The position numbers and the translations under genes are program-made. A DNA stretch of 34,635 nucleotides, taken from contig CAJXZZ010000027.1 of the NCBI GenBank assembly GCA_913065105.1, positions 1-34,635 of the forward strand. The letters are read 5' to 3'. Under the pieces are notes generated by a model. It searched no databases, had not been told where the DNA came from, and was given only the letters and a program-made list of their open reading frames with translations. Positions within the stretch are counted from its first letter, which is position 1; each line of letters begins with the position of its first letter. Source of the DNA: an uncultured Gammaproteobacteria bacterium. GTDB lineage: Bacteria; Pseudomonadota; Gammaproteobacteria; SZUA-229. Positions 2,369 through 30,645 of the stretch are shown here, piece after piece.

Positions 2369-3508
2369 TTATTCATTGATCACTGGCAACGGTGATTGAT
2401 GTGACTGCAAAAACCATTTATCTGTCACCACATTCTTTGTAAACCATTGCGTTTTCATTAACTGTTTAGCAAAAAATCTTTTAACAAACATAGGCAACCG
2501 CTCCATCATATCCGGTGCCGGCAGGCGTTGCCCAAATCGTTGCTCCATCAATTCATTGTATGCCTGCAGTTTGTTCTTACTGAAGTCACCTTCACAGCAG
2601 CGTATAACATCTGCGGCCAGCACTGCAGATTCGACCGCCGGTCGAATGCCTTCACCACTCTGCGGATAAGCTAATCCGGCTGAGTCACCAATAAGCAAAA
2701 CATGATCAGCGACCATCTCTCTTACTGCATGGTTATACAACAAATAAGCATGGCCACTATATTTAGCTGTAATATCACTCGGAATTTTCCCTTCTGCAGA
2801 TAAATAGTCACAGAAGTCTTTTACATGGCTAGATAATTTACTTTTATCTTCACGACCTAAACCAATATTTAGATAGTCGCCTTTACGGAACACCCAGCCA
2901 TAACCCATAAGATCAGGCGTAAAAAATAATTCAGGGACTTCTTCTTTAATACTGCAATTTTGTTTTTGCTGCGCACTCATTTCAAACTCAGCTTCCTGCG
3001 CGACAACCGCAAGCTCGCTTACTCCTTTTGAATCAATGGCGCGTGCAACAGGACAATAATGACCACCCGCACCGATAACCAGTTTCGCTCTGTAGTTATC
3101 GTTAACTAACCAGCCGTCACTGGCTTTTTCCATTTTTTTAAAAGTTTCGTTTAGAATTAGCTCGGCACCGCAGCGCCGCAACAGATAATCATCAAACTCA
3201 ATACGACGAATACCGTAGCTCACAGGCTCCCCGGGATAATGAGATTCAACCAGTTGTTGGCCTATTTGGCCAATTTTAAATCCGCTGATTTTTTGTAATA
3301 CGCGGCCTTTTGCGTAATCGTCCAGATCAACATTCAACACACGCATGACTTCGGGCGTAACCCAGCCAGCACATATTTTTTGTCGTGGAAACGTAGTTTT
3401 ATCGAGTATAGCGATTTTTAAACCCGCACCCGATAAAGCGTAAGCAAGTGTAGAACCGGCTGGCCCGCCACCCACAATTAAGATGTCATAAAGCTGCATA
3501 TATTTCAT
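2369..3508 (-). CDS. FAD-dependent oxidoreductase, geranylgeranyl-reductase-like family
   Basis: N-terminal dinucleotide-binding motif ILIVGGGPAGSTLAYALSGAGLKIAILDK and a GD motif (LIGDSAG). Start overlaps the stop of the upstream cfa-like fragment (ATGA), suggesting translational coupling. Confidence 0.85.
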   Translation of the reverse strand: MKYMQLYDILIVGGGPAGSTLAYALSGAGLKIAILDKTTFPRQKICAGWVTPEVMRVLNVDLDDYAKGRVLQKISGFKIGQIGQQLVESHYPGEPVSYGIRRIEFDDYLLRRCGAELILNETFKKMEKASDGWLVNDNYRAKLVIGAGGHYCPVARAIDSKGVSELAVVAQEAEFEMSAQQKQNCSIKEEVPELFFTPDLMGYGWVFRKGDYLNIGLGREDKSKLSSHVKDFCDYLSAEGKIPSDITAKYSGHAYLLYNHAVREMVADHVLLIGDSAGLAYPQSGEGIRPAVESAVLAADVIRCCEGDFSKNKLQAYNELMEQRFGQRLPAPDMMERLPMFVKRFFAKQLMKTQWFTKNVVTDKWFLQSHQSPLPVINE

Positions 3509-4038
3509 TCCGTTTCTGATGAGACCACGCTTAATTTTGCTTTGCCAGCGGTTTTATTTGTGTTGGCATCATAAACATAATGACGCGACCGTGGGACATT
3601 GTTATTTTTAGCGTGACTGAATACTACCTGAAATAATTGCAAATGACCTGAGTTAAAAGCAGCAATCGAGCCGTAAAGATAAAGTCCCCAGGCTTTAACA
3701 AACTCCTCATCCATCATTTCCGTAATTTCAGATTTATGTTGTTCAAAACGCTGAGCCCAGATTTCAAGTGTGCGCGAATAATGTAACCGAAGATTCTCAA
3801 CGTCATATATAGCGATGTCGTTAGGCTCAAAAATATTCATCATCTGACTTAATGCAGGAGGACGCGCACCGGGGAAAATACGCCGTTCGATCCAGGCATT
3901 CATCGGCCCTTTAACCGTACGACCGATACAATGAATCAAACCTCTGCCATCAGATTTCAAACAACGATCGATGATCCCTCCCAGTTCCTGATAGTCGCGT
4001 ATAGCCACATGTTCTAACATGCCGACGGAAACAAACAC
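3505..4038 (-). pseudogene. N-terminally truncated cyclopropane-fatty-acyl-phospholipid synthase-like gene (C-terminal half only, SAM-binding motif I missing)
   Basis: Product matches the C-terminal half of Cfa-type methyltransferases (…VSVGMLEHV…, …LYLYGSIAAFNSGHLQLFQVVFSHA…). Only ~50 nt separate its first ATG from the upstream bcp stop, leaving no room for the ~170 aa N-terminal domain. A short direct repeat TTCTATATG/TTCTATATC lies in that gap. Confidence 0.7.
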
Positions 4039-7641: not shown

Positions 7642-9090
7642 ATGGGCGAAGAAATACAATATAGCCATTTCAATAAATCAGATTATCAGCAATTTTCTTC
7701 ACATCTAAAAGAAGAGACAACATTGCTGAAGAACTGGTTTGATAAACATACGTTCTCTTCTTCCTCACTGATGGCAGGTTATGAGCTCGAAGCCTGGTTA
7801 ATTAATACAACGGGTAACCCTGTCGCAATAAATGATACCTTTCTTGAACAGGCAGACAATGCGTTATTAAGTCCTGAACTGGCAAAATTCAATATTGAGC
7901 TCAACGTTGAACCTGAACAATTATCCAATAAGGTTCTATCAATATTTGAACACAAGTTAGACGCGCTATGGCAACAATGCTCAACGACTGCCGCATCTCT
8001 TAACAGCAATATTCTCGGTATCGGTATCTTGCCGACCTTGCAGGACAGTGACCTCACGCTAGAGAACTTATCCCTGCTAGATCGATACAGAGCGCTCAAC
8101 GAACAAGTCTTAAGACAACGTAAGGGCGTTGAAATAGAATTAAACATTAACGGCTTAGACCACCTGCAGCTAAGTCATAAAGATGTAATGCTGGAAGCTG
8201 CGGCAACTTCACTACAGATCCATATACAGGTTCCACAGGATGTTGCCACACGTTATTACAATGCATCCGTTTTATTATCGGCACCGATGGTCGCCGTTAG
8301 TGCTAATTCGCCCTGTTTATTTGGTAAACGTCTGTGGCAGGAAACACGTATTCCTGTTTTCGAACAAGCCGTGCCTACCGGCGGTTATGGTGGTGCGTCC
8401 TCTGGTCCCGTACATCGGGTTGGTTTCGGCTCTGACTATGTACGCAATTCACTGTATGAATGTTTCCAGGAAAACCTTGAGCACTTTCCTGTTCTGCTAC
8501 CCGTGCATTACCAGAGCAAACTAGACGAGGTTCGGCACCTGCGCCTGCATAACGGTACCATCTGGCGGTGGAACCGGCCTTTGATCGGTTTTGATGAAGA
8601 CCAGACGCCACATTTACGCATCGAACATCGCGTCTGTGCCAGTGCGCCATCGACCATCGATAATATAGCCAACATCGCCTTCTATTACGGTCTGGTGCAT
8701 TATTATGCCACCACTGAAGAACCGCCTGAGTCTGTTATGCCTTTTACCGACGCAAAAAACAATTTCTACCGTGCTGCCCAGCTTGGACTAAAATATAAAA
8801 CCAGCTGGTTAAGCAAAAACACCGATACATTACAAAAGATCATCCTGGAGAAGCTGCTTATTCAGGCCGAAATGGGTTTATATAAATTAGGCATCGATCA
8901 GGCCGACAGTCAACGTTACCTCTCCGTTATCGAGCAGCGCGTAGAAAATAATAAAACCGGTAGTCAGTGGCAGCTGGATTTTCTTAATGCACATCAAAAC
9001 AATAGAACTAAGCTCACATTAAACTACCTAAGAAACCAGATAACCGGCAAGCCAGTACATGAATGGGATCTTGAGACGACACCATGTTAA
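7642..9090 (+). CDS. Glutamate--cysteine ligase family 2 (GCS2) / carboxylate-amine ligase-like protein, 482 aa
   Basis: N-terminal GYELEAWLI region and overall architecture resemble GCS2 / YbdK-type ATP-dependent carboxylate-amine ligases. Overlaps the downstream gene by 7 nt (operon). Long AT-rich upstream region 7409-7641. Confidence 0.65.
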   Translation: MGEEIQYSHFNKSDYQQFSSHLKEETTLLKNWFDKHTFSSSSLMAGYELEAWLINTTGNPVAINDTFLEQADNALLSPELAKFNIELNVEPEQLSNKVLSIFEHKLDALWQQCSTTAASLNSNILGIGILPTLQDSDLTLENLSLLDRYRALNEQVLRQRKGVEIELNINGLDHLQLSHKDVMLEAAATSLQIHIQVPQDVATRYYNASVLLSAPMVAVSANSPCLFGKRLWQETRIPVFEQAVPTGGYGGASSGPVHRVGFGSDYVRNSLYECFQENLEHFPVLLPVHYQSKLDEVRHLRLHNGTIWRWNRPLIGFDEDQTPHLRIEHRVCASAPSTIDNIANIAFYYGLVHYYATTEEPPESVMPFTDAKNNFYRAAQLGLKYKTSWLSKNTDTLQKIILEKLLIQAEMGLYKLGIDQADSQRYLSVIEQRVENNKTGSQWQLDFLNAHQNNRTKLTLNYLRNQITGKPVHEWDLETTPC

Positions 9091-10091
9091 ACGAAATGAC
9101 CCACATCCCTGATGCTTTTCTTAACGCGAAGGCAGAAGAGCTACACGATATATTAAAAGCACCCACACTATTTCATATAGAAGGTATTAACCCGCAACCA
9201 TTATTTATCTGTACCTTATTGCACGGCAATGAAACTACCGGTTTATATGCGATTCAACGCCTATTTAATAAATATAAAGACAAACCTTTACCCAGAGCAA
9301 TATCATTGTTTGTCGGTAATATCGCAGCAGCAAAAGAAGATCAACGGCGGCTCGACACACAGGATGATTACAATCGGATCTGGCCGGGTAGTCACCATAA
9401 CAACTCACCCGAAAAGGACATGATGCAGACAGTCAGCAATATCATGGAAAAGAAAAAACCCTTTGCCAGTATTGATATCCACAATAACACTGGCAAAAAC
9501 CCGCATTACGGCTGCATCAACATACTCAACCCACACGGACTCGTACTTGCCGCAAAATTCAGCAATATTGCAGTTTATTTTACCGATCCTAAAGGTGTAC
9601 AGTCATCGGCATTTTCCGATTTCTGCCCTGCTATTGTGCTTGAGTGCGGACAGGCGAGCGACAAGTCTGGAGAAGATCACGCTTTAGCCTATCTTGAGAC
9701 TATCTTACAGATGGATGATCTGGCATCTCATGAAAGCAATAACCTGAATCTTTATCACACTATCGCTCGTATCACGATTCCAAAAACAGTAAGCATAGGT
9801 GACAGTACCGATGATCATTCGTCCGATATCTACTTGAGCGCACTGCTGGAAGATAAAAATTTTCATCTTATCCAGCCGGGCACAGAATTTGCGGTAATCA
9901 ATTCCACAAAAGAAAAATTAATTGTTGTCAATAGTGAAAGCCACGAAGACATTACAGATGAATATTTTGAAAGAGATAATAACAAACTGATTTTTAAAAA
10001 ACCTGTCACGCTAGCGATGTACACCACCAGTGAAAAAGCGATAAGACAGGACTGTGTTTGTTATCTTATGGAAGAGCTCCGGATAGGATAA
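9084..10091 (+). CDS. Succinylglutamate desuccinylase / aspartoacylase (AstE/AspA) family zinc hydrolase
   Basis: HGNETTG zinc-binding motif near the N-terminus and a downstream conserved Glu/His region. 335 aa is typical of the family. Confidence 0.75.
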   Translation: MLNEMTHIPDAFLNAKAEELHDILKAPTLFHIEGINPQPLFICTLLHGNETTGLYAIQRLFNKYKDKPLPRAISLFVGNIAAAKEDQRRLDTQDDYNRIWPGSHHNNSPEKDMMQTVSNIMEKKKPFASIDIHNNTGKNPHYGCINILNPHGLVLAAKFSNIAVYFTDPKGVQSSAFSDFCPAIVLECGQASDKSGEDHALAYLETILQMDDLASHESNNLNLYHTIARITIPKTVSIGDSTDDHSSDIYLSALLEDKNFHLIQPGTEFAVINSTKEKLIVVNSESHEDITDEYFERDNNKLIFKKPVTLAMYTTSEKAIRQDCVCYLMEELRIG

Positions 10092-11101: not shown

Positions 11102-11623
11102 ATGCTTCAGCATAAGCACACAAAAATAATAATAAATAAATATACTATGAACAATATATCACTATTACTCCCGAAAAACCGTCGACCAGTATGGTCGCCA
11201 GTATTAAACACCACCGACGATAATCCAGGTAACGAATTCTCCGAATTTATAGAAATACCTCTGCTCGGAAAAATTACCGCCGGTAGCCCCATCGAGCGTG
11301 TTGAGGACGATGAACGTGTAAAAGTGCCTGCCAACATGGTGCGCAAAGATACCTATGCGTTAAAAGTGTCCGGCCATTCCATGATCGACGATAATATTCA
11401 AGATGGTGACATTGTCATCATTGAAAAGAGACAATCCGCCGAAAATGGACAGTCTGTTGTCGCGCTAATTAATAACGAGCAGGTCACGCTGAAAAAGTTT
11501 TATATCGAAGCTGACGGTATTCGTCTACAACCGGCTAATCCTGAGATGGACGCCATCCTGCTTAAAAATGAAGAAGTAGAAGTACTGGGTGTCGTAACAG
11601 GGGTTATTCGTCGATTTGAGTAA
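11102..11623 (+). CDS. LexA/UmuD-like S24 peptidase-family protein lacking a recognisable N-terminal DNA-binding domain
   Basis: Linker/cleavage region IPLLGKITAG|SP (Ala-Gly site). Ser-Lys dyad context (GHSMIDDNIQDGDIVIIEK … TLKKF). A more likely start is the internal Met (MNNISLL…, ~11147). No winged-helix segment upstream. Confidence 0.7.
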   Translation: MLQHKHTKIIINKYTMNNISLLLPKNRRPVWSPVLNTTDDNPGNEFSEFIEIPLLGKITAGSPIERVEDDERVKVPANMVRKDTYALKVSGHSMIDDNIQDGDIVIIEKRQSAENGQSVVALINNEQVTLKKFYIEADGIRLQPANPEMDAILLKNEEVEVLGVVTGVIRRFE

Positions 11624-11640: not shown

Positions 11641-11677
11641 AAAGGGCTTGCTGATAATATCTCAAGCCCTTTTTTTA
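11641..11677 (+). terminator. Rho-independent terminator after the S24-family gene
   Basis: AAAGGGCTTG-ctgataatatct-CAAGCCCTTTTTTT. The track ORF 11648..11857 overlaps it and is probably spurious. Confidence 0.7.
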
Positions 11678-11861
11678 TGTGTTTTTAATACCCCCGCACA
11701 GCTGCTCTTCGGCAGAAAAGACTGTGTAAATCTTAGGGAGATAGTCATTGCATCTAATGGTAGAATTCGCCGTGTGTCGAAGTCGCCGCTAAAGTTGAAA
11801 CAAGTAACGCTTGCAGTCCGCCAGAAATATTCAACTAACTATTTGAATTTCAAGTGATTAT

Positions 11862-13541
11862 ATGAAAGTCCAGGTAAGTGAATTAATCGTTAAATATATG
11901 GAACGCCTCGGCATAGATACCATTTTCGGTATGCCAGGTGCTCATATTCTGCCGGTTTACGACAGCCTGTATAACTCATCAATTCAATCTGTTCTTGCCA
12001 AGCACGAACAGGGCGCCGCCTTCATGGCCTGTGGTTATGCCCGCGCTTCCGGCAAAATCAGTGCCTGTATTACCACTGCTGGACCAGGCGCAACAAATCT
12101 GGTCACCGGCATTGCTAATGCTTATGCCGACAAACAACCTATCCTTATCATCACAGGCGAGACCCCAACCTACATATTTGGTAAAGGCGGATTACAGGAA
12201 AGTTCTGGTGAAGGCGATAGTATAAATCAGTGCGCTTTGTTTGACAGCATTACTCGATATAACCGGGTTATCGAACGTACCGACTACCTGGAAAATGTGC
12301 TTAACCAGACATCAAAGATTCTATTGTCCGATAATTCAGGACCAGTTTTACTCAGCCTGCCCTTTAATGTGCAAAAAGAAATGGTCGAGCTTGATATCCT
12401 CGACAAGATTATTACGCGCAATAAACCAGCGACACATCTAAATGGATCGCAGCCGTCACCACAGATTCAACACTTTGTTGACCTGCTTAAAGACAGTAAT
12501 AAACCCGTCATTGTTTCCGGATATGGCTGCATTAAATCTGGCGCACAATCATTAGTCACAGAATTAAGCCAGTCATTAAACATCCCCGTCACTTCCAGCC
12601 TTAAAGGAAAAGGCACGATCAATGAATGCTCCGAATTATCGTTAGGTAGCTTAGGTGTAACGTCTAGTGGTTATGCGTTTGACTACATCGTTAAGCAGTC
12701 AGATCTGGTCATGGTCTTAGGCGCCAGTTTTAACGAACGCACCAGTTACCTGTGGAACGACAAATTACTTGGTGATAAAAATGTTATCCAGGTCGACATT
12801 AATGATGAACAATTAAATAAAGTTTACCAGGCTGACCTTACTATCCATGCTGATATCAAGCATACACTGAACAGCGTGATGAAAAAGGTAGAAGAACAGT
12901 CGCTAGATAAGAAACAGCTGGAAAATATCCATGATTTCAAAAACAGCTACGAAGACAAAGCCAACAAGGATGGCAACTCTATTTTTCAGGCCGAATTCTC
13001 TTTAGTTAAAGCTTTCTTTGAAAAAATGAATACACATTTTCCTGAAGGAATTTCGGTGTTTGATGACAACATAATTTTTGCACAGAACCTGCTTCAGGTT
13101 TCAACAAAAAATCGCTTTTATCCAAATTCCGGTGTTTCATCTTTAGGGCATGCCATACCTGCGGCTATTGGTGCACAGTTTTCTAAACAGACAACCATGT
13201 TTGCCATAATCGGGGACGGCGGCTTTCAGATGTGCTGCATGGAAATAATGACCGCGGTAAATTACGAAAAACCGTTGAACATAATATTGTTCAACAATGG
13301 CAGCATGGGACTGATTCGAAAAAATCAGGTGCAGAGTTACAATAATCGATTTATAGATTGCGACTTCAGTAATCCGGACTACAAAAAACTGGCTGATGCT
13401 TTTGGCATCAATCACGCTTTGATAGAAACAGATAACGACCTTGAGACACTATTTGAAAACACCGACTTTACCACGGGTATAAACCTTATCGAGATCATCA
13501 TCGATAAGGATGCTTTCCCTAATTACTCTTCAAGAAGATAA
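11862..13541 (+). CDS. Thiamine-pyrophosphate-dependent enzyme of the acetolactate-synthase-like family
   Basis: N-terminal Pyr domain (GMPGAHILPVYD, …TAGPGATNLVTGIANAYAD…). C-terminal TPP motif GDGGFQM…NNGSMGLIR. 559 aa. Confidence 0.85.
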   Translation: MKVQVSELIVKYMERLGIDTIFGMPGAHILPVYDSLYNSSIQSVLAKHEQGAAFMACGYARASGKISACITTAGPGATNLVTGIANAYADKQPILIITGETPTYIFGKGGLQESSGEGDSINQCALFDSITRYNRVIERTDYLENVLNQTSKILLSDNSGPVLLSLPFNVQKEMVELDILDKIITRNKPATHLNGSQPSPQIQHFVDLLKDSNKPVIVSGYGCIKSGAQSLVTELSQSLNIPVTSSLKGKGTINECSELSLGSLGVTSSGYAFDYIVKQSDLVMVLGASFNERTSYLWNDKLLGDKNVIQVDINDEQLNKVYQADLTIHADIKHTLNSVMKKVEEQSLDKKQLENIHDFKNSYEDKANKDGNSIFQAEFSLVKAFFEKMNTHFPEGISVFDDNIIFAQNLLQVSTKNRFYPNSGVSSLGHAIPAAIGAQFSKQTTMFAIIGDGGFQMCCMEIMTAVNYEKPLNIILFNNGSMGLIRKNQVQSYNNRFIDCDFSNPDYKKLADAFGINHALIETDNDLETLFENTDFTTGINLIEIIIDKDAFPNYSSRR

Positions 13542-13567
13542 CTCCTGGTAACAGAATATCCAGACCA

Positions 13568-15433
13568 ATGAAATCCGTAGAAAATACATCACTGCTTCAG
13601 CAAACCAGAAAAATTGCTGAAAGTACAAAGGTAAATACTGCTGAACTGGACAACCTGATCAAGCAGCTAACGCAATCCGCTGACGACAACGCGATCGATC
13701 GAGTCATCGCACTATACAATAAAACAATAATAAAATATGAGCAGGCCATCTGGCAGGATAATCCGTCAGATAAAGAGATTGAGCAATACCAGGATTCTTT
13801 TAGAGTATTAGAGAAGATCTATGAATTAAAATCTAACGATGAACGCTATAACTTCAAAATCGTTATTCCCATTGCTGATAGACCACAACATTTAAAACAA
13901 TGCCTGGATAGTTTATTAAAGCTTTGCCAGTGTTATCAGTATGGCGGTTACAAAAACAGTACCTATAGCAAGATATCCGTCTTGATCGCTGATGACTCAA
14001 GAGATGAAAAAAACATCCGACTACATGAACAATACTGTGCAGAATTTACAAAAGCAGGACTTTTAGTCGAGCATTTTGGACTAAAAGAGCAACTAGCCCT
14101 GGTTAACGCCGTTACCACAAGTCACGTGGCGTTAGATAATATTATCCCTGATACTGATGACATCAAGGACGCCTCCGATTTTTCGCATAAAGGCGCGTCT
14201 ATCATGCGCAATATTACTTATCTAAAACTGAATAACGAAATCAATAAAAATACTGACAGGGATAATACATTAATTTATTTCATCGATAGCGATCAGGAAT
14301 TTTGCGTCAATACCACACGATCAGATAACCAATATGCGATCAACTACTTTCATTATCTGAATGGTATATTTAAAACACAAAACATCTCTATCCTTACGGG
14401 AAAAGTTGTCGGCGATCCTCCCGTCTCCCCTTCTGTCATGGCGGGAAATTTTCAACAGGACATCAAAAACTTTCTAGATTCAATCGCAGGATCAAACCCT
14501 GTAGATGCGTGCCAGTTTCATCAACATCTGGAAAAGTGTGAAGATGATGCCTCATATCATGATATGGCCGATCTATTCGGCTTCTCAAACAAAAACAAAA
14601 CATTCGACTACCATTGCACACTGAAAAATAATCATACCAACGCCGAATGTTTACATGATTTTTCTAACAAGCTAAGTCACTTTTTTTATGGCGAGCATCC
14701 GACGAGAAAAACATACTTCAACTATGACGATGGATTCGCTAAAACAACCACTGCCAGGACCGTATATACAGGAAACTATATAATAAAACCTGACGCACTG
14801 GATTATTTCATTCCCTTTGCCACTCTGAAATTACGCATGGCGGGACCTGTTCTAGGTCGTGTCTTAAAGACTAGACTTCAACATCAGTTCGTGTCGGCTA
14901 ATTTACCTATGTTACATAATCGAACGGTTGCTTCGACTGGGGAATCCGAATTTCGACCAGGCGTGAAAAATAACACCAGCGGTATTGACCTGGGTAATGA
15001 ATTCATCCGTCAGTTCTATGGTGATGTTTTATTGTTTTCCATGGAAGAAATAACCAACGCAGGCATCACATTAAACGATACCAATAAAGAAATAATACAG
15101 ACTATCCTGAATCAAAAATACCAGACGATCAAACACAGCTACATCGAAAAACACTACACGATATTGCAGTTAAAAACACAGATCAGAAAATTGCTAAACG
15201 ATCAGAAACACTGGTGGCATAGATCATCAACTAAACCACTACTTGCTGAAAACACACTCACCAACTTCAACACTTTCCTGGACAATATTCAGAAAAACTT
15301 TGATGAGAATACTGACGCCTATCGCGAGATAACGCTAACAGAACATGCAGATAAACATTTGCAAAAACTTCTTCATGCTATCCTGCATTATCAGGCTGAC
15401 TTGATAAGCTGGAAAAAATTTCTCAACAGTTAA
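13568..15433 (+). CDS. Large (621 aa) hypothetical protein with a GT-A (family-2-like) glycosyltransferase-type core
   Basis: FKIVIPIADRPQHLKQCLDSLL resembles the GT2 N-terminal motif. LIADDSRDE and IYFIDSDQEF resemble DD/DxD motifs. Long uncharacterised C-terminal extension. Very AT-rich. Confidence 0.5.
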   Translation: MKSVENTSLLQQTRKIAESTKVNTAELDNLIKQLTQSADDNAIDRVIALYNKTIIKYEQAIWQDNPSDKEIEQYQDSFRVLEKIYELKSNDERYNFKIVIPIADRPQHLKQCLDSLLKLCQCYQYGGYKNSTYSKISVLIADDSRDEKNIRLHEQYCAEFTKAGLLVEHFGLKEQLALVNAVTTSHVALDNIIPDTDDIKDASDFSHKGASIMRNITYLKLNNEINKNTDRDNTLIYFIDSDQEFCVNTTRSDNQYAINYFHYLNGIFKTQNISILTGKVVGDPPVSPSVMAGNFQQDIKNFLDSIAGSNPVDACQFHQHLEKCEDDASYHDMADLFGFSNKNKTFDYHCTLKNNHTNAECLHDFSNKLSHFFYGEHPTRKTYFNYDDGFAKTTTARTVYTGNYIIKPDALDYFIPFATLKLRMAGPVLGRVLKTRLQHQFVSANLPMLHNRTVASTGESEFRPGVKNNTSGIDLGNEFIRQFYGDVLLFSMEEITNAGITLNDTNKEIIQTILNQKYQTIKHSYIEKHYTILQLKTQIRKLLNDQKHWWHRSSTKPLLAENTLTNFNTFLDNIQKNFDENTDAYREITLTEHADKHLQKLLHAILHYQADLISWKKFLNS

Positions 15434-15450
15434 AATCAACATAAAAACTA

Positions 15451-15981
15451 ATGAATATCTTCATCTTAAACTCCGGTCGCTGTGGCTCCACCACATTTAT
15501 TAAAGCTTGTGCTCACATAAAAAATTACACTAGTGCTCATGAATCCTTATTAACTGAAACCGGATCAAGACGTTTTAATTATCCTGAAAACCATATTGAA
15601 GCGGACAATCGGCTCTCCTGGTTGCTAGGGCGACTTGATGATATTTATGCAGACAATGCCTTTTATGTGCACCTACATCGTAACCCACAGGATACTGCAA
15701 ACAGCTTTTCTAAACGAATAGATTTTGGCATTCTAAAAGCTTACGAACAGGGAATATTACTGCATGAGCAGCATCTCAAATCGCCTCTCGATATAGCAAA
15801 CGATTATCTAGAAACGGTCGATAGCAATATAAAACTTTTTCTAAGAGATAAATCCAGAAAAATGGATATTTCGCTCGAAACCATACAAGCAGACTTCACT
15901 GGCTTCTGGAACAGGATTAACGCCCAGGGAAATCTGGACGACGCATTAGAAGAATGGAAGACAAACTACAACGCTTCCTGA
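15451..15981 (+). CDS. Sulfotransferase-like protein (Stf0-type PAPS-binding motif)
   Basis: N-terminal LNSGRCGSTTF resembles the Stf0/sulfotransferase 5'-PSB loop (RSGST). 176 aa is shorter than typical, so the assignment is tentative. Confidence 0.5.
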   Translation: MNIFILNSGRCGSTTFIKACAHIKNYTSAHESLLTETGSRRFNYPENHIEADNRLSWLLGRLDDIYADNAFYVHLHRNPQDTANSFSKRIDFGILKAYEQGILLHEQHLKSPLDIANDYLETVDSNIKLFLRDKSRKMDISLETIQADFTGFWNRINAQGNLDDALEEWKTNYNAS

Positions 15982-15990
15982 GAACTCCAT

Positions 15991-16614
15991 TCAGCCGCGT
16001 TTTAGTATAAAACAACCACGCTCATTCTCGATATATTCAGCCCGAAACTCAGGATATGCTGTTAGCCAACGCACGACTATTTCCTGCTCGTCGTCTCTCG
16101 CGGCATCATCCAGAAAAACAGCACATTCATCTGCGAGCTGGTCGTAGAGTAATGGCAATGCGGGGTATCGCGAATGTTCCTGTATGAACCCAGGCGGGCC
16201 ATCAATAACTAATAAGTCAATTTTAGAAACAGGGAAATTATACAGCTCATACCATTGAAAATTCTCATCGCCTATCTGGATGTTTTGTAAAGGAGCATGA
16301 ACAACCTCACAAAAACTAGACAAAGAAAAATCACCTAACTGTTGCTGCGTTTGATCAACAAACTGCTGACCATTCTCAAGACTATAAACATGACCATGCT
16401 GATTTAACTGACAACATCTTGATAACACCAGACTACTGGTTCCGCTACTGCACTCGACGATGGTCTTCGGTTTATTCTGTCTACAATAATCACTGATTAT
16501 TGTTAGAAAATCTGCCGCCGCAGACCAGTCTTTTGTAACAGGTAAAGCTTTTTCAAAACCGAGTGCTTTTTCCAGGTTCTGGTAAGAGGATTCTGATGAG
16601 GGATTATTTTTCAT
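15991..16614 (-). CDS. Class I SAM-dependent methyltransferase-like protein (O-methyltransferase-type fold)
   Basis: Motif I-like IVECSSGTSSLVL and post-I acidic LLVIDGPPG, resembling TylF/MycF and macrocin-O-MT-like enzymes. Convergent with the upstream three-gene cluster. Confidence 0.6.
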   Translation of the reverse strand: MKNNPSSESSYQNLEKALGFEKALPVTKDWSAAADFLTIISDYCRQNKPKTIVECSSGTSSLVLSRCCQLNQHGHVYSLENGQQFVDQTQQQLGDFSLSSFCEVVHAPLQNIQIGDENFQWYELYNFPVSKIDLLVIDGPPGFIQEHSRYPALPLLYDQLADECAVFLDDAARDDEQEIVVRWLTAYPEFRAEYIENERGCFILKRG

Positions 16615-16631
16615 AATAAATATTAAAAACT

Positions 16632-16657
16632 AAAAAGCAGCCAAACAGCTGCTTTTT
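16632..16657. terminator. Perfectly palindromic rho-independent terminator (bidirectional)
   Basis: AAAAAGCAGC-caaaca-GCTGCTTTTT. Confidence 0.65.
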
Positions 16658-16680
16658 AACTAACAAATCTACCGTATAAA

Positions 16681-16872
16681 TTACGCTTGATTCGTCATAT
16701 CCTGACCGCAACACATTGGTGATTTCACCTTACCATGACCATCAGGACATTTAGATACATGCACCTTGGTTCCATCATCAGTTGTAATCGTGTCGTGAAC
16801 CAGCTCTTTACCACATTCAGCACAAGTCATTGTACCGATACCCATACCACATACTTCGCATTTGTAAGCCAT
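16681..16872 (-). CDS. Desulforedoxin-like rubredoxin-type small Cys protein (63 aa) with an inserted CxxC/His segment
   Basis: YKCEVCG … CCGQDM matches the desulforedoxin Fe(Cys)4 signature (YKCELCG … CCGEDM). A ~30 aa insertion carries CAEC, KCPDGHG and an additional Cys. Confidence 0.6.
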   Translation of the reverse strand: MAYKCEVCGMGIGTMTCAECGKELVHDTITTDDGTKVHVSKCPDGHGKVKSPMCCGQDMTNQA

Positions 16873-18458: not shown

Positions 18459-19802
18459 ATGAAAAAACCTGAACTGCTTTCACCCGCCGGATTGATCAAA
18501 AACATGCGTTACGCCTTTGCCTACGGCGCAGATGCCGTCTATGCAGGGCTACCGAGATACAGCCTCAGGGTTCGTAATAATGATTTCCGCCTGCCTAACC
18601 TGGAAGCCGGCATCAGCGAAGCACACGAGCTGGGCAAAAAGTTTTTTGTGGCGACCAACATCCTGCCACATACCGCAAAGATCAAAACCTTTATGGATGA
18701 TATGGAACCGATTATCGCGCTTAATCCAGACGCCCTGATCATGGCTGATCCCGGCCTGATCATGATGATTAAAGACAAATGGCCCGATATGCCCATCCAT
18801 CTGTCGGTACAGGCGAATACCTTAAATTCACCTTCGGTTAGATTCTGGCAATCTGCAGGTGTTGAACGCATTATCCTGTCGCGCGAATTATCACTCGATG
18901 AGATCGCCGAGATTCGTAACGACTGCCCGGACATAGAACTAGAAGTCTTCATCCATGGTTCATTATGCATTGCCTATTCCGGCCGTTGCCTGTTATCAGG
19001 CTACTTTAACCACCGCGACCCCAACCAGGGCACCTGTACCAATTCGTGTCGCTGGAATTACAAAGTTAAAAACAATGATGGTGATCAGAGCATCGAAAAC
19101 ACCGGCATATGGAAACCCGATACTGATGATGCCAGTGAGATAACCTCACAGCAGTTTTTACTGGAAGAAGAAGGTCGTCAGGGTGAATACATGCCCATCG
19201 AAGAAGATGAACATGGCACCTATATCATGAACTCCCGAGATCTGCGTGCCGTCGAGCACGTACACCGCCTGGTGGATATCGGCGTTGATTGCCTGAAGAT
19301 CGAAGGCCGCACCAAATCCTATTATTACACTGCCAGGGCAACGCAGATATATCGCCAGGCGATCGATGATGCCGTCAGTGGAAAAAGCTTTGACCCGCAT
19401 CTCATGACCGAACTGGAAAACCTCGCCCACCGCGGTTACACCGATGGTTTTTTCGAACGCCACGCACCACAGGAAATGCAACGCTACCGTGACAGCAGCT
19501 CGCGCAGCCAGAGACAGATTTTTTCAGGTGAAGTCGTCGAATTCGATAAACAAAATAAACGTATTCTGGTCGATATTAAAAACAAGATTACCATCGGTGA
19601 TGACATGGAGTTATTAACCGCCAGCGGTAATCATCAATTTACCCTGAAGAACATGACTGACCAGAGAGGCAACAATATCGATTGCGCGCCTGGCAGTGGC
19701 CACCACGCGTGGGTTGGCGTGGAAGATAATATTGATGAAGTCCGCCTGGGCCTGCTGTGCCGAACGCTGAGTGAAGAATCTGCTCGCATCGATATAGATT
19801 AG
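18459..19802 (+). CDS. yegQ: Peptidase U32 family protein, YegQ/TrhP-like (tRNA hydroxylation-associated)
   Basis: Near-colinear with E. coli YegQ (MxKPELLSPAGxLKNMRYAFAYGADAVYAG…, GSLCIAYSGRCLLSGY…NQGTCTNxCRW). Confidence 0.88.
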   Translation: MKKPELLSPAGLIKNMRYAFAYGADAVYAGLPRYSLRVRNNDFRLPNLEAGISEAHELGKKFFVATNILPHTAKIKTFMDDMEPIIALNPDALIMADPGLIMMIKDKWPDMPIHLSVQANTLNSPSVRFWQSAGVERIILSRELSLDEIAEIRNDCPDIELEVFIHGSLCIAYSGRCLLSGYFNHRDPNQGTCTNSCRWNYKVKNNDGDQSIENTGIWKPDTDDASEITSQQFLLEEEGRQGEYMPIEEDEHGTYIMNSRDLRAVEHVHRLVDIGVDCLKIEGRTKSYYYTARATQIYRQAIDDAVSGKSFDPHLMTELENLAHRGYTDGFFERHAPQEMQRYRDSSSRSQRQIFSGEVVEFDKQNKRILVDIKNKITIGDDMELLTASGNHQFTLKNMTDQRGNNIDCAPGSGHHAWVGVEDNIDEVRLGLLCRTLSEESARIDID

Positions 19803-30536: not shown

Positions 30537-30563
30537 AAAAAACCCGCCTCTAGGGCGGGTTTT
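30537..30563 (-). terminator. Strong intrinsic terminator hairpin ~45 nt upstream of the SnoaL-like start codon, in cassette sense
   Basis: Minus sense: AAAACCCGCC-ctaga-GGCGGGTTTTTTGTTT. Confidence 0.6.
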
Positions 30564-30579
30564 AGATACTAATCAGACA

Positions 30580-30645
30580 CTAGCAAACCCACCACTCTCT
30601 TCGAATGATAATAATTTGCTGTAAGGTGGCTGCTTGTCTTTTCAT
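30580..30645 (-). promoter_or_regulatory. Putative 21-codon leader ORF (MKRQAATLQQIIIIRREWWVC) ending 17 nt before the terminator; candidate Ile-sensing attenuator
   Basis: Four consecutive Ile codons (att att atc att), a stop, then the terminator. A TTGACA-like -35 lies upstream at ~30673. Confidence 0.3.

Follow-up and report, generated by a model that had tools for sequence, protein, structure and literature searches.

From the conservation of gene order across genomes, combined with structure models and family searches, we describe a small biosynthetic module in a 34,635-nucleotide (nt) stretch of DNA, hereafter the window, from an uncultured Gammaproteobacteria bacterium of the SZUA-229 lineage (contig CAJXZZ010000027.1). 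Its centre is formed by two genes, one for an enzyme of 559 amino acids (aa) that depends on thiamine diphosphate (ThDP, also TPP) and resembles acetolactate synthase (ALS), and one for a 621-aa protein with a predicted GT-A glycosyltransferase fold. These two are the invariant core of the module and an obligate pair, as 68 of the 69 loci that could be assessed have the TPP gene directly 5' of the 621 homologue. In the window they are followed by genes for a 176-aa sulfotransferase-like protein and for a convergent methyltransferase dependent on S-adenosylmethionine (SAM), which constitute a lineage-specific accessory pair and not part of a fixed four-gene set. The enzyme superfamilies are known, their combination, apparently a glyco-conjugate biosynthetic operon, is new, and literature searches for this gene combination or module found nothing. 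The four genes are arranged as follows.

11862-13541, plus strand: TPP enzyme gene, 559 aa
13568-15433, plus strand: gene for the GT-A-like protein, 621 aa
15451-15981, plus strand: gene for the sulfotransferase-like protein, 176 aa
15991-16614, minus strand: SAM methyltransferase gene, 207 aa, convergent

Conservation and layout of the module

A scan with one genome per species returned 531 genomes with relatives of the 621-aa protein, and the locus counts given here are taken from the 80 best. The carriers are sulfur- and iron-oxidising Gamma- and Betaproteobacteria, with identity to the 621-aa protein reaching down to about 40%, and comprise Thiotrichaceae, Sedimenticolaceae (including the endosymbionts of the tubeworms Escarpia and Lamellibrachia), Candidatus Thiodiazotropha (symbionts of lucinid clams), Thiohalomonadaceae, Sulfuricella, Gallionellaceae, Rhodocyclaceae, Hydrogenophilales and a few others. 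Median gaps are 13 nt between the TPP and 621 genes, -4 nt between the 621 and 176 genes and 0 nt between the 621 gene and the ligase gene described below. The arrangement is far beyond chance, and the two core genes are probably translationally coupled.

The position behind the core is filled in different ways. The sulfotransferase is the third gene in 37 of 67 loci, an adenylating enzyme of the PaaK/F390-synthetase superfamily is found in 21, neither is present in 9, and no locus holds both. The methyltransferase gene occurs together with the sulfotransferase gene in 27 loci and without it in none. The adenylating enzyme (about 430 aa, encoded some 1.7-3.1 kb past the start of the 621 gene and below every NCBIfam cutoff) replaces the sulfotransferase gene in Betaproteobacteria and in some Gammaproteobacteria (loci L024, L026, L032, L034-L037, L047, L050, L054, L058, L061, L069, L070, L072, L073, L075, L079 and L082). 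The initial annotation of this DNA, made by a model from the letters alone, had treated the genes as one cluster and suggested a check of neighbourhood conservation; co-conservation was found, with the TPP and 621 genes as its constant part, whereas the sulfotransferase and methyltransferase genes vary between lineages.

No further gene family is conserved around the module in the 80 loci, and no transporter, flippase, lipid-carrier transferase, exporter or keto-sugar-forming dehydratase is conserved beside it; a gene resembling UDP-sugar dehydrogenases adjoins it in 4 loci. The genomic context is of a housekeeping, chromosomal kind, a plasmid search for 621 homologues found none carried, and the degree of conservation is unusually high for surface-glycan genes. 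The genes for an S24 peptidase, DoxX, a glutamate-cysteine-ligase-family-2 (GCS2)-like protein and an AstE-like protein were rejected as members of the module, being conserved in close relatives only.

In the window, 26 nt separate the TPP gene from the 621 gene and 17 nt the 621 gene from the 176 gene, while 9 nt lie between the stop codons of the 176 gene and the convergent methyltransferase gene. Two non-coding features precede the unit.

11641-11680 (about), plus strand: intrinsic terminator at the 3' end of the upstream S24-peptidase gene, marking the 5' boundary of the unit
11723-11780, plus strand: conserved non-coding block AAATCTTAGGGAGATAGTCAnnnnCATCTAATGGTAgAATTCGCCGT, carrying an extended -10-like TGgTAGAAT

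The terminator is a GGGCUUG...CAAGCCC hairpin followed by U7, with a folding free energy (dG) of -18 kcal/mol and z = -5.05, and none of 200 shuffled sequences folds equally well. Together with the four reading frames, the two gaps and the converging methyltransferase gene, it lies where the initial annotation had placed it. The non-coding block, about 55 nt long and 100-150 nt upstream of the TPP start codon, is conserved in 13 related loci, as detected by nhmmer and seen in the alignment too, and the 621 proteins of its carriers are only 52-62% identical. It also holds a GGGAGATAG(N6-7)CATCTA element, and its 29-nt core, which occurs once in the window against 0 expected, is found once per locus and at the same place in 9 loci. 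The block is probably the promoter of the operon combined with an operator for some regulator. A riboswitch or leader RNA 5' of the TPP gene was considered and rejected, since an Rfam search of the block gave no family match, the block is promoter- and operator-like and the rest of the leader is unconserved.

The cluster had been described as AT-rich, which its composition contradicts: the genes have a GC content of 0.39-0.42 and a third-position GC content (GC3) of 0.37-0.44, compared to 0.42 for the window, and the flanking genes are similar. A horizontally acquired island was likewise rejected, as the cluster has the composition of its flanks and relatives retain synteny across them, and so was an anti-phage defence system, as PADLOC returned no matches. 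All four proteins are predicted to be soluble by transmembrane (TM) prediction.

The four enzymes

The TPP enzyme is ALS-like at the superfamily level, to judge by its domains and motifs. It matches the Pfam families TPP_enzyme_N, TPP_enzyme_M and TPP_enzyme_C (E = 7e-38, 1e-33 and 2e-31), and the catalytic Glu in KHEQG as well as GDGGFQ...NNG, i.e. the GDG...NN motif, are visible in alignments. All 25 NCBIfam models listed for it remain below cutoff, the best being acolac_lg with 376.5 against 538.35 bits, and the equivalogs missed are acetolactate synthase (TIGR00118 and related), glyoxylate carboligase, pyruvate oxidase, Xsc and others. The assignment to the ALS family in the initial annotation is hence correct at the level of the superfamily only, as every ALS equivalog cutoff is missed and the specificity Trp is replaced.

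The best match in the PDB is BbmA (8x3x, 274 bits), followed by yeast acetohydroxyacid synthase (AHAS, 238 bits); no account of the reaction of BbmA was found in the literature searched. With the AHAS/acetolactate synthase large subunit (IlvB/IlvG/IlvI; yeast Ilv2, 1jsc) and with BbmA the enzyme shares the three-domain ThDP architecture, the KHEQG Glu and the GDG...NN motif, and an FGKGxLQES segment is common to it and BbmA. It differs from AHAS in its scores relative to the NCBIfam ALS cutoffs, in the change from VTQW to IRKN, in the lack of an adjoining small subunit and in its constant GT-A partner. The AHAS segment with the acceptor-specificity Trp (G-M-V-x-Q-W-Q) aligns to G-L-I-R-K-N-Q, and in 65 family members LIRKNQ (L484-Q489) is invariant or nearly so; compared to its AHAS counterpart VTQWQ, the Trp is lost and two basic residues are gained. 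FGKGGLQESSGEG is likewise invariant or nearly so in these members, and SFNERT is invariant, keeping as SFNER the final Arg of the AHAS counterpart RFDDR. The pocket contains the invariant basic residues K108, R292, R486 and K487. Because the conserved segments have the Trp replaced and two basic residues added, they suggest carboligase or decarboxylase activity toward an anionic compound, as acceptor or substrate, that differs from the one used by ALS. No ilvN/ilvH small-subunit gene adjoins the TPP gene, whose neighbours are the genes for the S24 peptidase and the 621-aa protein, and the same holds in related loci.

The 621-aa protein is best described as a highly divergent GT-A-fold, glycosyltransferase-like protein outside current family models. 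Its AlphaFold2 (AF2) model, generated with 47 homologues, has a mean predicted local distance difference test (pLDDT) score of 81.8 and a predicted TM-score (pTM) of 0.83, and divides into the following regions.

Residues ~1-85: N-terminal helical region
Residues ~95-310: GT-A core, with IVIPxADRP, LIADDS and the DXD motif FIDSDQEF
Residues ~315-361: Cys/His-rich insert, modelled at low confidence
Residues ~476-620: C-terminal helical bundle

In a Foldseek search of the PDB with this model, the leading matches are almost all GT-A glycosyltransferases, at a probability of about 1.0. The best is Chlorella hyaluronan synthase (7sp9, E = 3.9e-5), and mannosylglycerate synthase, mannosyl-3-phosphoglycerate synthase, PcManGT, GlfT2, chitin synthases, RmlT and PmHS2 are further matches, of which PmHS2 has the lowest root-mean-square deviation (4.1 Å over 193 columns). 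The invariant motifs IVIPxADRP, LIADDS and FIDSDQEF appear in the order expected for GT-A enzymes, with the DXD motif (F238-I-D240-S-D242) after model strand 234-238 and invariant in the 47 homologues. The GT-A fold claimed at the outset is thereby supported by AF2 and Foldseek in agreement and by the presence of the DXD motif.

With GT2-type GT-A enzymes (7sp9; PmHS2, 8viw; GlfT2, 4fix; mannosylglycerate synthase, 2bo7) the protein shares the predicted Rossmann-like core, IVIPxA in beta1, LIADDS and the D240-S-D242 of the DXD motif. It differs from them in being soluble, with no TM segment in the prediction, in its helical extensions of about 85 aa at the N-terminus and about 145 aa at the C-terminus, in the Cys/His-rich insert, and in the absence of the classical QxxRW, whose place may be taken by the invariant E478-F-x-R481-Q482. 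No Pfam or NCBIfam family reaches threshold for it, and a PDB profile search with the family gave nothing significant. Its 2084 homologues include none that is characterised and none with precomputed Pfam domains; sub-threshold Pfam GT2 matches were obtained for 11 of the 47 homologues (best E = 0.0025).

The 176-aa protein is, on its motifs and predicted fold, probably a minimal and divergent member of the sulfotransferase superfamily, and not specifically Stf0-like. Sulfotransferases carry a 5'-phosphosulfate-binding (5'-PSB) pattern (K/R)-x-G-(S/T)-T and a 3'-phosphate-binding (3'-PB) motif R...S, as known from SULT and TPST structures. A 5'-PSB-like loop, GRCGSTT, occupies residues 9-15, the motif in which the initial annotation had seen a likeness to a binding loop for 3'-phosphoadenosine 5'-phosphosulfate (PAPS), and is followed by the 3'-PB-like R77-N-P-Q-D-T-A-N-S85-F, with matching order and spacing. 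We favour the sulfotransferase over the kinase class because both motifs match and the loop lacks the Lys of a Walker-A GK[ST]. Across the wide 176 family G9, R10, E31, I49 and E50 are invariant and G12, H30, H48, R77 and S85 are at least 90% conserved; H48 and E50 are candidate catalytic residues.

With PAPS sulfotransferases (OLS/CurM 'activating' domains, 4gox/4gbm; SgdX2, 8y9p; Stf0, 1tex; TPST; cytosolic SULTs) the protein shares the 5'-PSB (G-R-x-G-S-T) and the 3'-PB (R-N-x-x-D-x-x-x-S-F), and its predicted P-loop-like alpha/beta fold resembles theirs as well as that of nucleoside-monophosphate and shikimate kinases. Typical members have 250-300 aa, whereas this one is far smaller and without the C-terminal GxxGxxK region. 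Of the Stf0-like sulfotransferase originally suggested, the two PAPS-binding motifs and, as probable, the fold were retained and the likeness to Stf0 was not, as neither the protein nor the relatives scanned match the Pfam Stf0 family and OLS/CurM-type domains are best structurally; Stf0 (1tex) is Foldseek match 18 of the AF2 model (pLDDT 87.9), with a TM-score normalised to the query (TMq) of 0.52. The window protein itself reaches only E = 0.077 against Pfam Sulfotransfer_3. The initial annotation had named three outcomes that would speak against it, namely a 621-aa protein without GT-A fold, a 176-aa protein outside the sulfotransferases and a lack of co-conservation, and none of these was observed.

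A profile search of 1.84 billion representatives identified 922 relatives of the 176-aa domain, counted as clusters at 50% identity (labels of relatives: proteins P0250-P0390; loci L084:9001-9687 and L085:7989-8540). Of the 136 top-ranking representatives with a complete domain, 50 have extensions of more than 100 aa. Among 20 fusions scanned, 13 contain glycosyltransferase domains (GT2, GT4, GT25, GT-D and rhamnosyltransferase), 3 methyltransferases, including FkbM, and 2 a TPR together with a lipid-A-acyltransferase-like domain, while in all 20 proteins the 176 domain itself matches no Pfam family. The GT2 domain of one fusion has its nearest matches in the heparosan synthase PmHS2 (E = 3e-23) and in chondroitin synthase. 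This is a hint that bacteria make sulfated polymers of a glycosaminoglycan-like kind, and fusions of this type suggest that sulfated glycans may be commoner in bacteria than recognised.

Homologues annotated as 'hypothetical protein' lie inside glycan loci on two plasmids. In Pseudanabaena PCC 7367, the neighbours of a 57%-identical plasmid-borne homologue include glycosyltransferases, a Wzm/Wzt-like ABC transporter and two FkbM methyltransferases, and a Streptomonospora phage-plasmid carries, in this order, genes for a methyltransferase, a glycosyltransferase, the 176-aa homologue and an FkbM methyltransferase. Because the trio of glycosyltransferase, 176 domain and methyltransferase recurs across phyla, the data support a role of the domain in decorating sugars.

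The 207-aa protein, finally, is a class-I SAM-dependent methyltransferase, as annotated from the start, with a match to Pfam Methyltransf_24 (PF13578) above the cutoff (29.6 against 26.3 bits, E = 1.3e-6).

Proposed pathway and alternatives

Based on these assignments, we tentatively favour, with somewhat less than even confidence, a cytoplasmic four-enzyme pathway that leads to a decorated sugar conjugate, i.e. a small glycoside or short glycan and not an exported surface polymer. The ALS-like enzyme would decarboxylate a 2-keto acid, probably pyruvate, on ThDP and ligate the activated aldehyde to an anionic carbonyl acceptor. Next, the 621-aa protein, with a nucleoside-diphosphate (NDP)-sugar at its DXD/metal site, would glycosylate the TPP product, or alternatively transfer a TPP-modified sugar. 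The 176-aa enzyme would then move sulfate from PAPS to a hydroxyl, and the methyltransferase would O-methylate a hydroxyl or carboxyl. In Betaproteobacteria, the PaaK/F390-synthetase-type adenylating enzyme would act at the same stage, in place of sulfation and methylation. As the initial annotation had suggested, a glycoconjugate that is sulfated, methylated or both, and that is built from a unit derived from a 2-keto acid, is a reasonable candidate for the product.

We favour a small cytoplasmic product because the module has neither an exporter nor lipid-carrier machinery linked to it, because the enzymes are highly conserved (53-91% identity for the TPP enzyme) and because the alternative third enzyme is of a carboxylate-activating type. 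The solubility predicted for all four proteins and the presence of mannosylglycerate and mannosyl-3-phosphoglycerate synthases among the Foldseek matches of the 621-aa protein are in agreement with this.

Several points weigh against the proposed pathway. Each chemical step is deduced from superfamily membership, and PAPS synthesis by the genome is not visible from this window. The 621-aa protein scores below the Pfam Glycos_transf_2 threshold (14.2 against 23.3 bits), and an hhalign comparison of its family with the GT2 domain alignment gives a probability of 7% and covers the first beta-alpha-beta only. For the 176-aa protein, nucleoside-monophosphate (NMP) and shikimate kinases equal or surpass sulfotransferases by Foldseek E-value, and PDB profile searches with the family return no significant sulfotransferase, OLS and CurM appearing only at E ~2-3. 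Moreover, relatives of the 176-aa protein are encoded beside ABC exporters in polysaccharide loci or have polymerase-like GT2 domains as fusion partners, and processive synthases are among the top structural matches of the 621-aa protein; these two observations fit a surface glycan at least equally well.

If the product is indeed a sulfated, methylated glycoside, it would represent a new metabolite class, which might serve as osmolyte or signal or, in connection with the metabolism of adenosine 5'-phosphosulfate (APS) and PAPS, as sink or carrier, and would imply a new ThDP-enzyme specificity and a new glycosyltransferase family. Conservation of the module is strict among sulfur and iron oxidisers of environmental importance and among chemosynthetic symbionts of animals, and cultured carriers exist in Sedimenticola and Sulfuricella. 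The families involved are large, that of the 621-aa protein comprising about 2000 sequence clusters in 531 or more species-level genomes and that of the 176-aa protein about 920 clusters at 50% identity, and neither a Pfam or NCBIfam model nor a characterised member was found for either. A wider proposal, which we regard as possible and rather doubtful, is that the TPP enzyme and the 621-aa protein are the core of a widely conserved and so far unrecognised pathway in chemolithoautotrophic sulfur and iron oxidisers, including the tubeworm and lucinid-clam symbionts, and produce a new class of soluble metabolites, a glycosylated acyloin or hydroxy-keto acid to which Gammaproteobacteria would add sulfate and methyl groups and which Betaproteobacteria would adenylate or acyl-activate; two new families would follow, one of glycosyltransferases represented by the 621-aa protein and one of minimal sulfotransferases represented by the 176-aa protein, whose family would also serve in making sulfated bacterial glycans via heparosan-synthase-like fusions.

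Alternatively, the module may serve a surface glycan, a route that we consider unlikely on balance and nonetheless the strongest of the rival explanations. Here, a YerE-like TPP enzyme would branch an NDP-keto-sugar drawn from general sugar-nucleotide metabolism with an acyl or hydroxyalkyl group that derives from a 2-keto acid, the 621-aa protein would transfer the branched sugar onto lipopolysaccharide, capsule or another envelope glycan, and the sulfotransferase and methyltransferase would add a cap or decoration, comparable to modifications that terminate chains. The ThDP-dependent ALS-superfamily enzymes YerE, ErwE and JanthE are a known route to C-branched sugars and likewise work with glycosyltransferases toward unusual sugars (PMC12247030), so a functional analogy is possible. 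The invariant basic residues of the TPP pocket would suit a nucleotide- or phosphate-bearing acceptor, the glycan loci (with Wzm/Wzt-like ABC transporters, glycosyltransferases and FkbM) and the GT2, GT4 and GT25 fusions of 176 homologues fit such a role, as do hyaluronan and chitin synthases, GlfT2 and RmlT among the best structural matches of the 621-aa protein and the occasional UDP-sugar-dehydrogenase-like neighbour. However, the TPP enzyme is only 24% identical to JanthE (174 bits; the sequence, from the supplement of PMC12188165, is the only YerE-like one compared), BbmA and AHAS have higher HMMER scores in the PDB search, and the gene stands outside any deoxy-sugar or O-antigen cluster; by this comparison the enzyme falls outside the YerE-like sugar-branching subclass. 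The lack of a keto-sugar dehydratase, lipid-carrier transferase, flippase or exporter conserved beside the module, its housekeeping chromosomal context and its high conservation also argue against this route.

A second rival concerns the third step of the favoured pathway, in that the 176-aa protein could be a P-loop phosphotransferase which, with the methyltransferase, phosphorylates and methylates the product in a WbdD-like manner. Foldseek matches of the 176 model are a mixture of sulfotransferases (4gox, 3uan, TPST, Stf0 and SgdX2) and NMP/shikimate kinases, and the top E-values, 2e-4 to 6e-4, belong to UMP-CMP, shikimate and adenylate kinases; the profile searches mentioned above and the recurrent pairing with methyltransferases would also be compatible with a kinase. 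The highest TM-scores, in contrast, are those of sulfotransferases, i.e. the OLS sulfotransferase 4gox (TMq 0.65) and 3-OST 3uan (0.59). Of 61 diverse standalone relatives, 16 match Pfam Sulfotransfer_3 (best E = 3e-5) and 12 Sulfotransfer_4 (best E = 1.4e-4), compared to none for Pfam kinase families. With the Walker-A Lys absent, G-R-C-G-S-T-T fitting the 5'-PSB pattern and the spacing of R77-N-P-x-D-x-x-x-S85-F being that of a 3'-PB motif, we judge the kinase alternative improbable. WbdD is reportedly the kinase-methyltransferase that caps the O9a O-antigen of E. coli. A likeness to such glycan-terminating pairs may be seen in the window, the fusions and the plasmid loci, where a small group-transfer enzyme of P-loop fold recurs in the company of a glycosyltransferase and a methyltransferase; the window module differs in having sulfate- and not phosphate-type motifs and in lacking a linked coiled-coil ruler or ABC exporter.

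The remaining alternative, that the TPP enzyme is an extra AHAS isozyme for branched-chain amino acids and its adjacency to the 621 gene functionally meaningless, is hardly credible, since, despite best NCBIfam matches to acetolactate synthase large-subunit models and strong PDB matches to yeast, plant and E. coli AHAS, the enzyme stays far below each ALS equivalog cutoff (376 against 538 bits and worse), no small-subunit gene adjoins, the ALS VTQW is replaced by an invariant IRKN, and the near-universal position upstream of the 621 gene spans two proteobacterial classes with frames overlapping or nearly so.

Neighbouring genes in the window

Directly upstream of the terminator lies the gene for the S24 peptidase (11102-11623, plus strand), whose C-terminal domain is of the LexA/UmuD type and in which no DNA-binding domain is recognisable. 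It is divergent from the DoxX gene, has no umuC-like neighbour and is placed directly 5' of the operon in close relatives only. Further upstream, at 7642-10091 on the plus strand, two genes with a 7-nt overlap encode the 482-aa glutamate-cysteine-ligase-family-2-like protein and a 335-aa AstE/aspartoacylase-like deacylase; the pair is kept in close relatives at 78-90% identity, and neither protein reaches an NCBIfam cutoff.

On the other side of the module, a 63-aa Cys-rich open reading frame (ORF) at 16681-16872 on the minus strand (CxxC...CxxC...C...CC), without a family match, stands beside the methyltransferase gene in loci L001-L003, and a terminator-like hairpin at 16628-16661 is located between the two in the window. 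The U32-family protein encoded at 18459-19802 (plus strand) is the tRNA uridine(34) hydroxylase TrhP at equivalog level (722 bits against a cutoff of 534) and is unrelated to the module.

At 2369-4038 on the minus strand, the match of a 177-aa ORF to the cyclopropane-fatty-acid-synthase (CMAS) family is confined to the C-terminal half of that family; the ORF lies directly upstream of a 379-aa FAD-binding oxidoreductase-like ORF, with a 4-nt overlap. In the corresponding flank of locus L003, a 454-aa CMAS-family gene is found beside a peroxiredoxin gene, and the 177-aa ORF may be a truncated or frameshifted gene. We also note a full-length match to the Pseudomonas small RNA P9 of Rfam (RF00624) at 30539-30618 on the minus strand, at 47.8 bits against a gathering score of 43.

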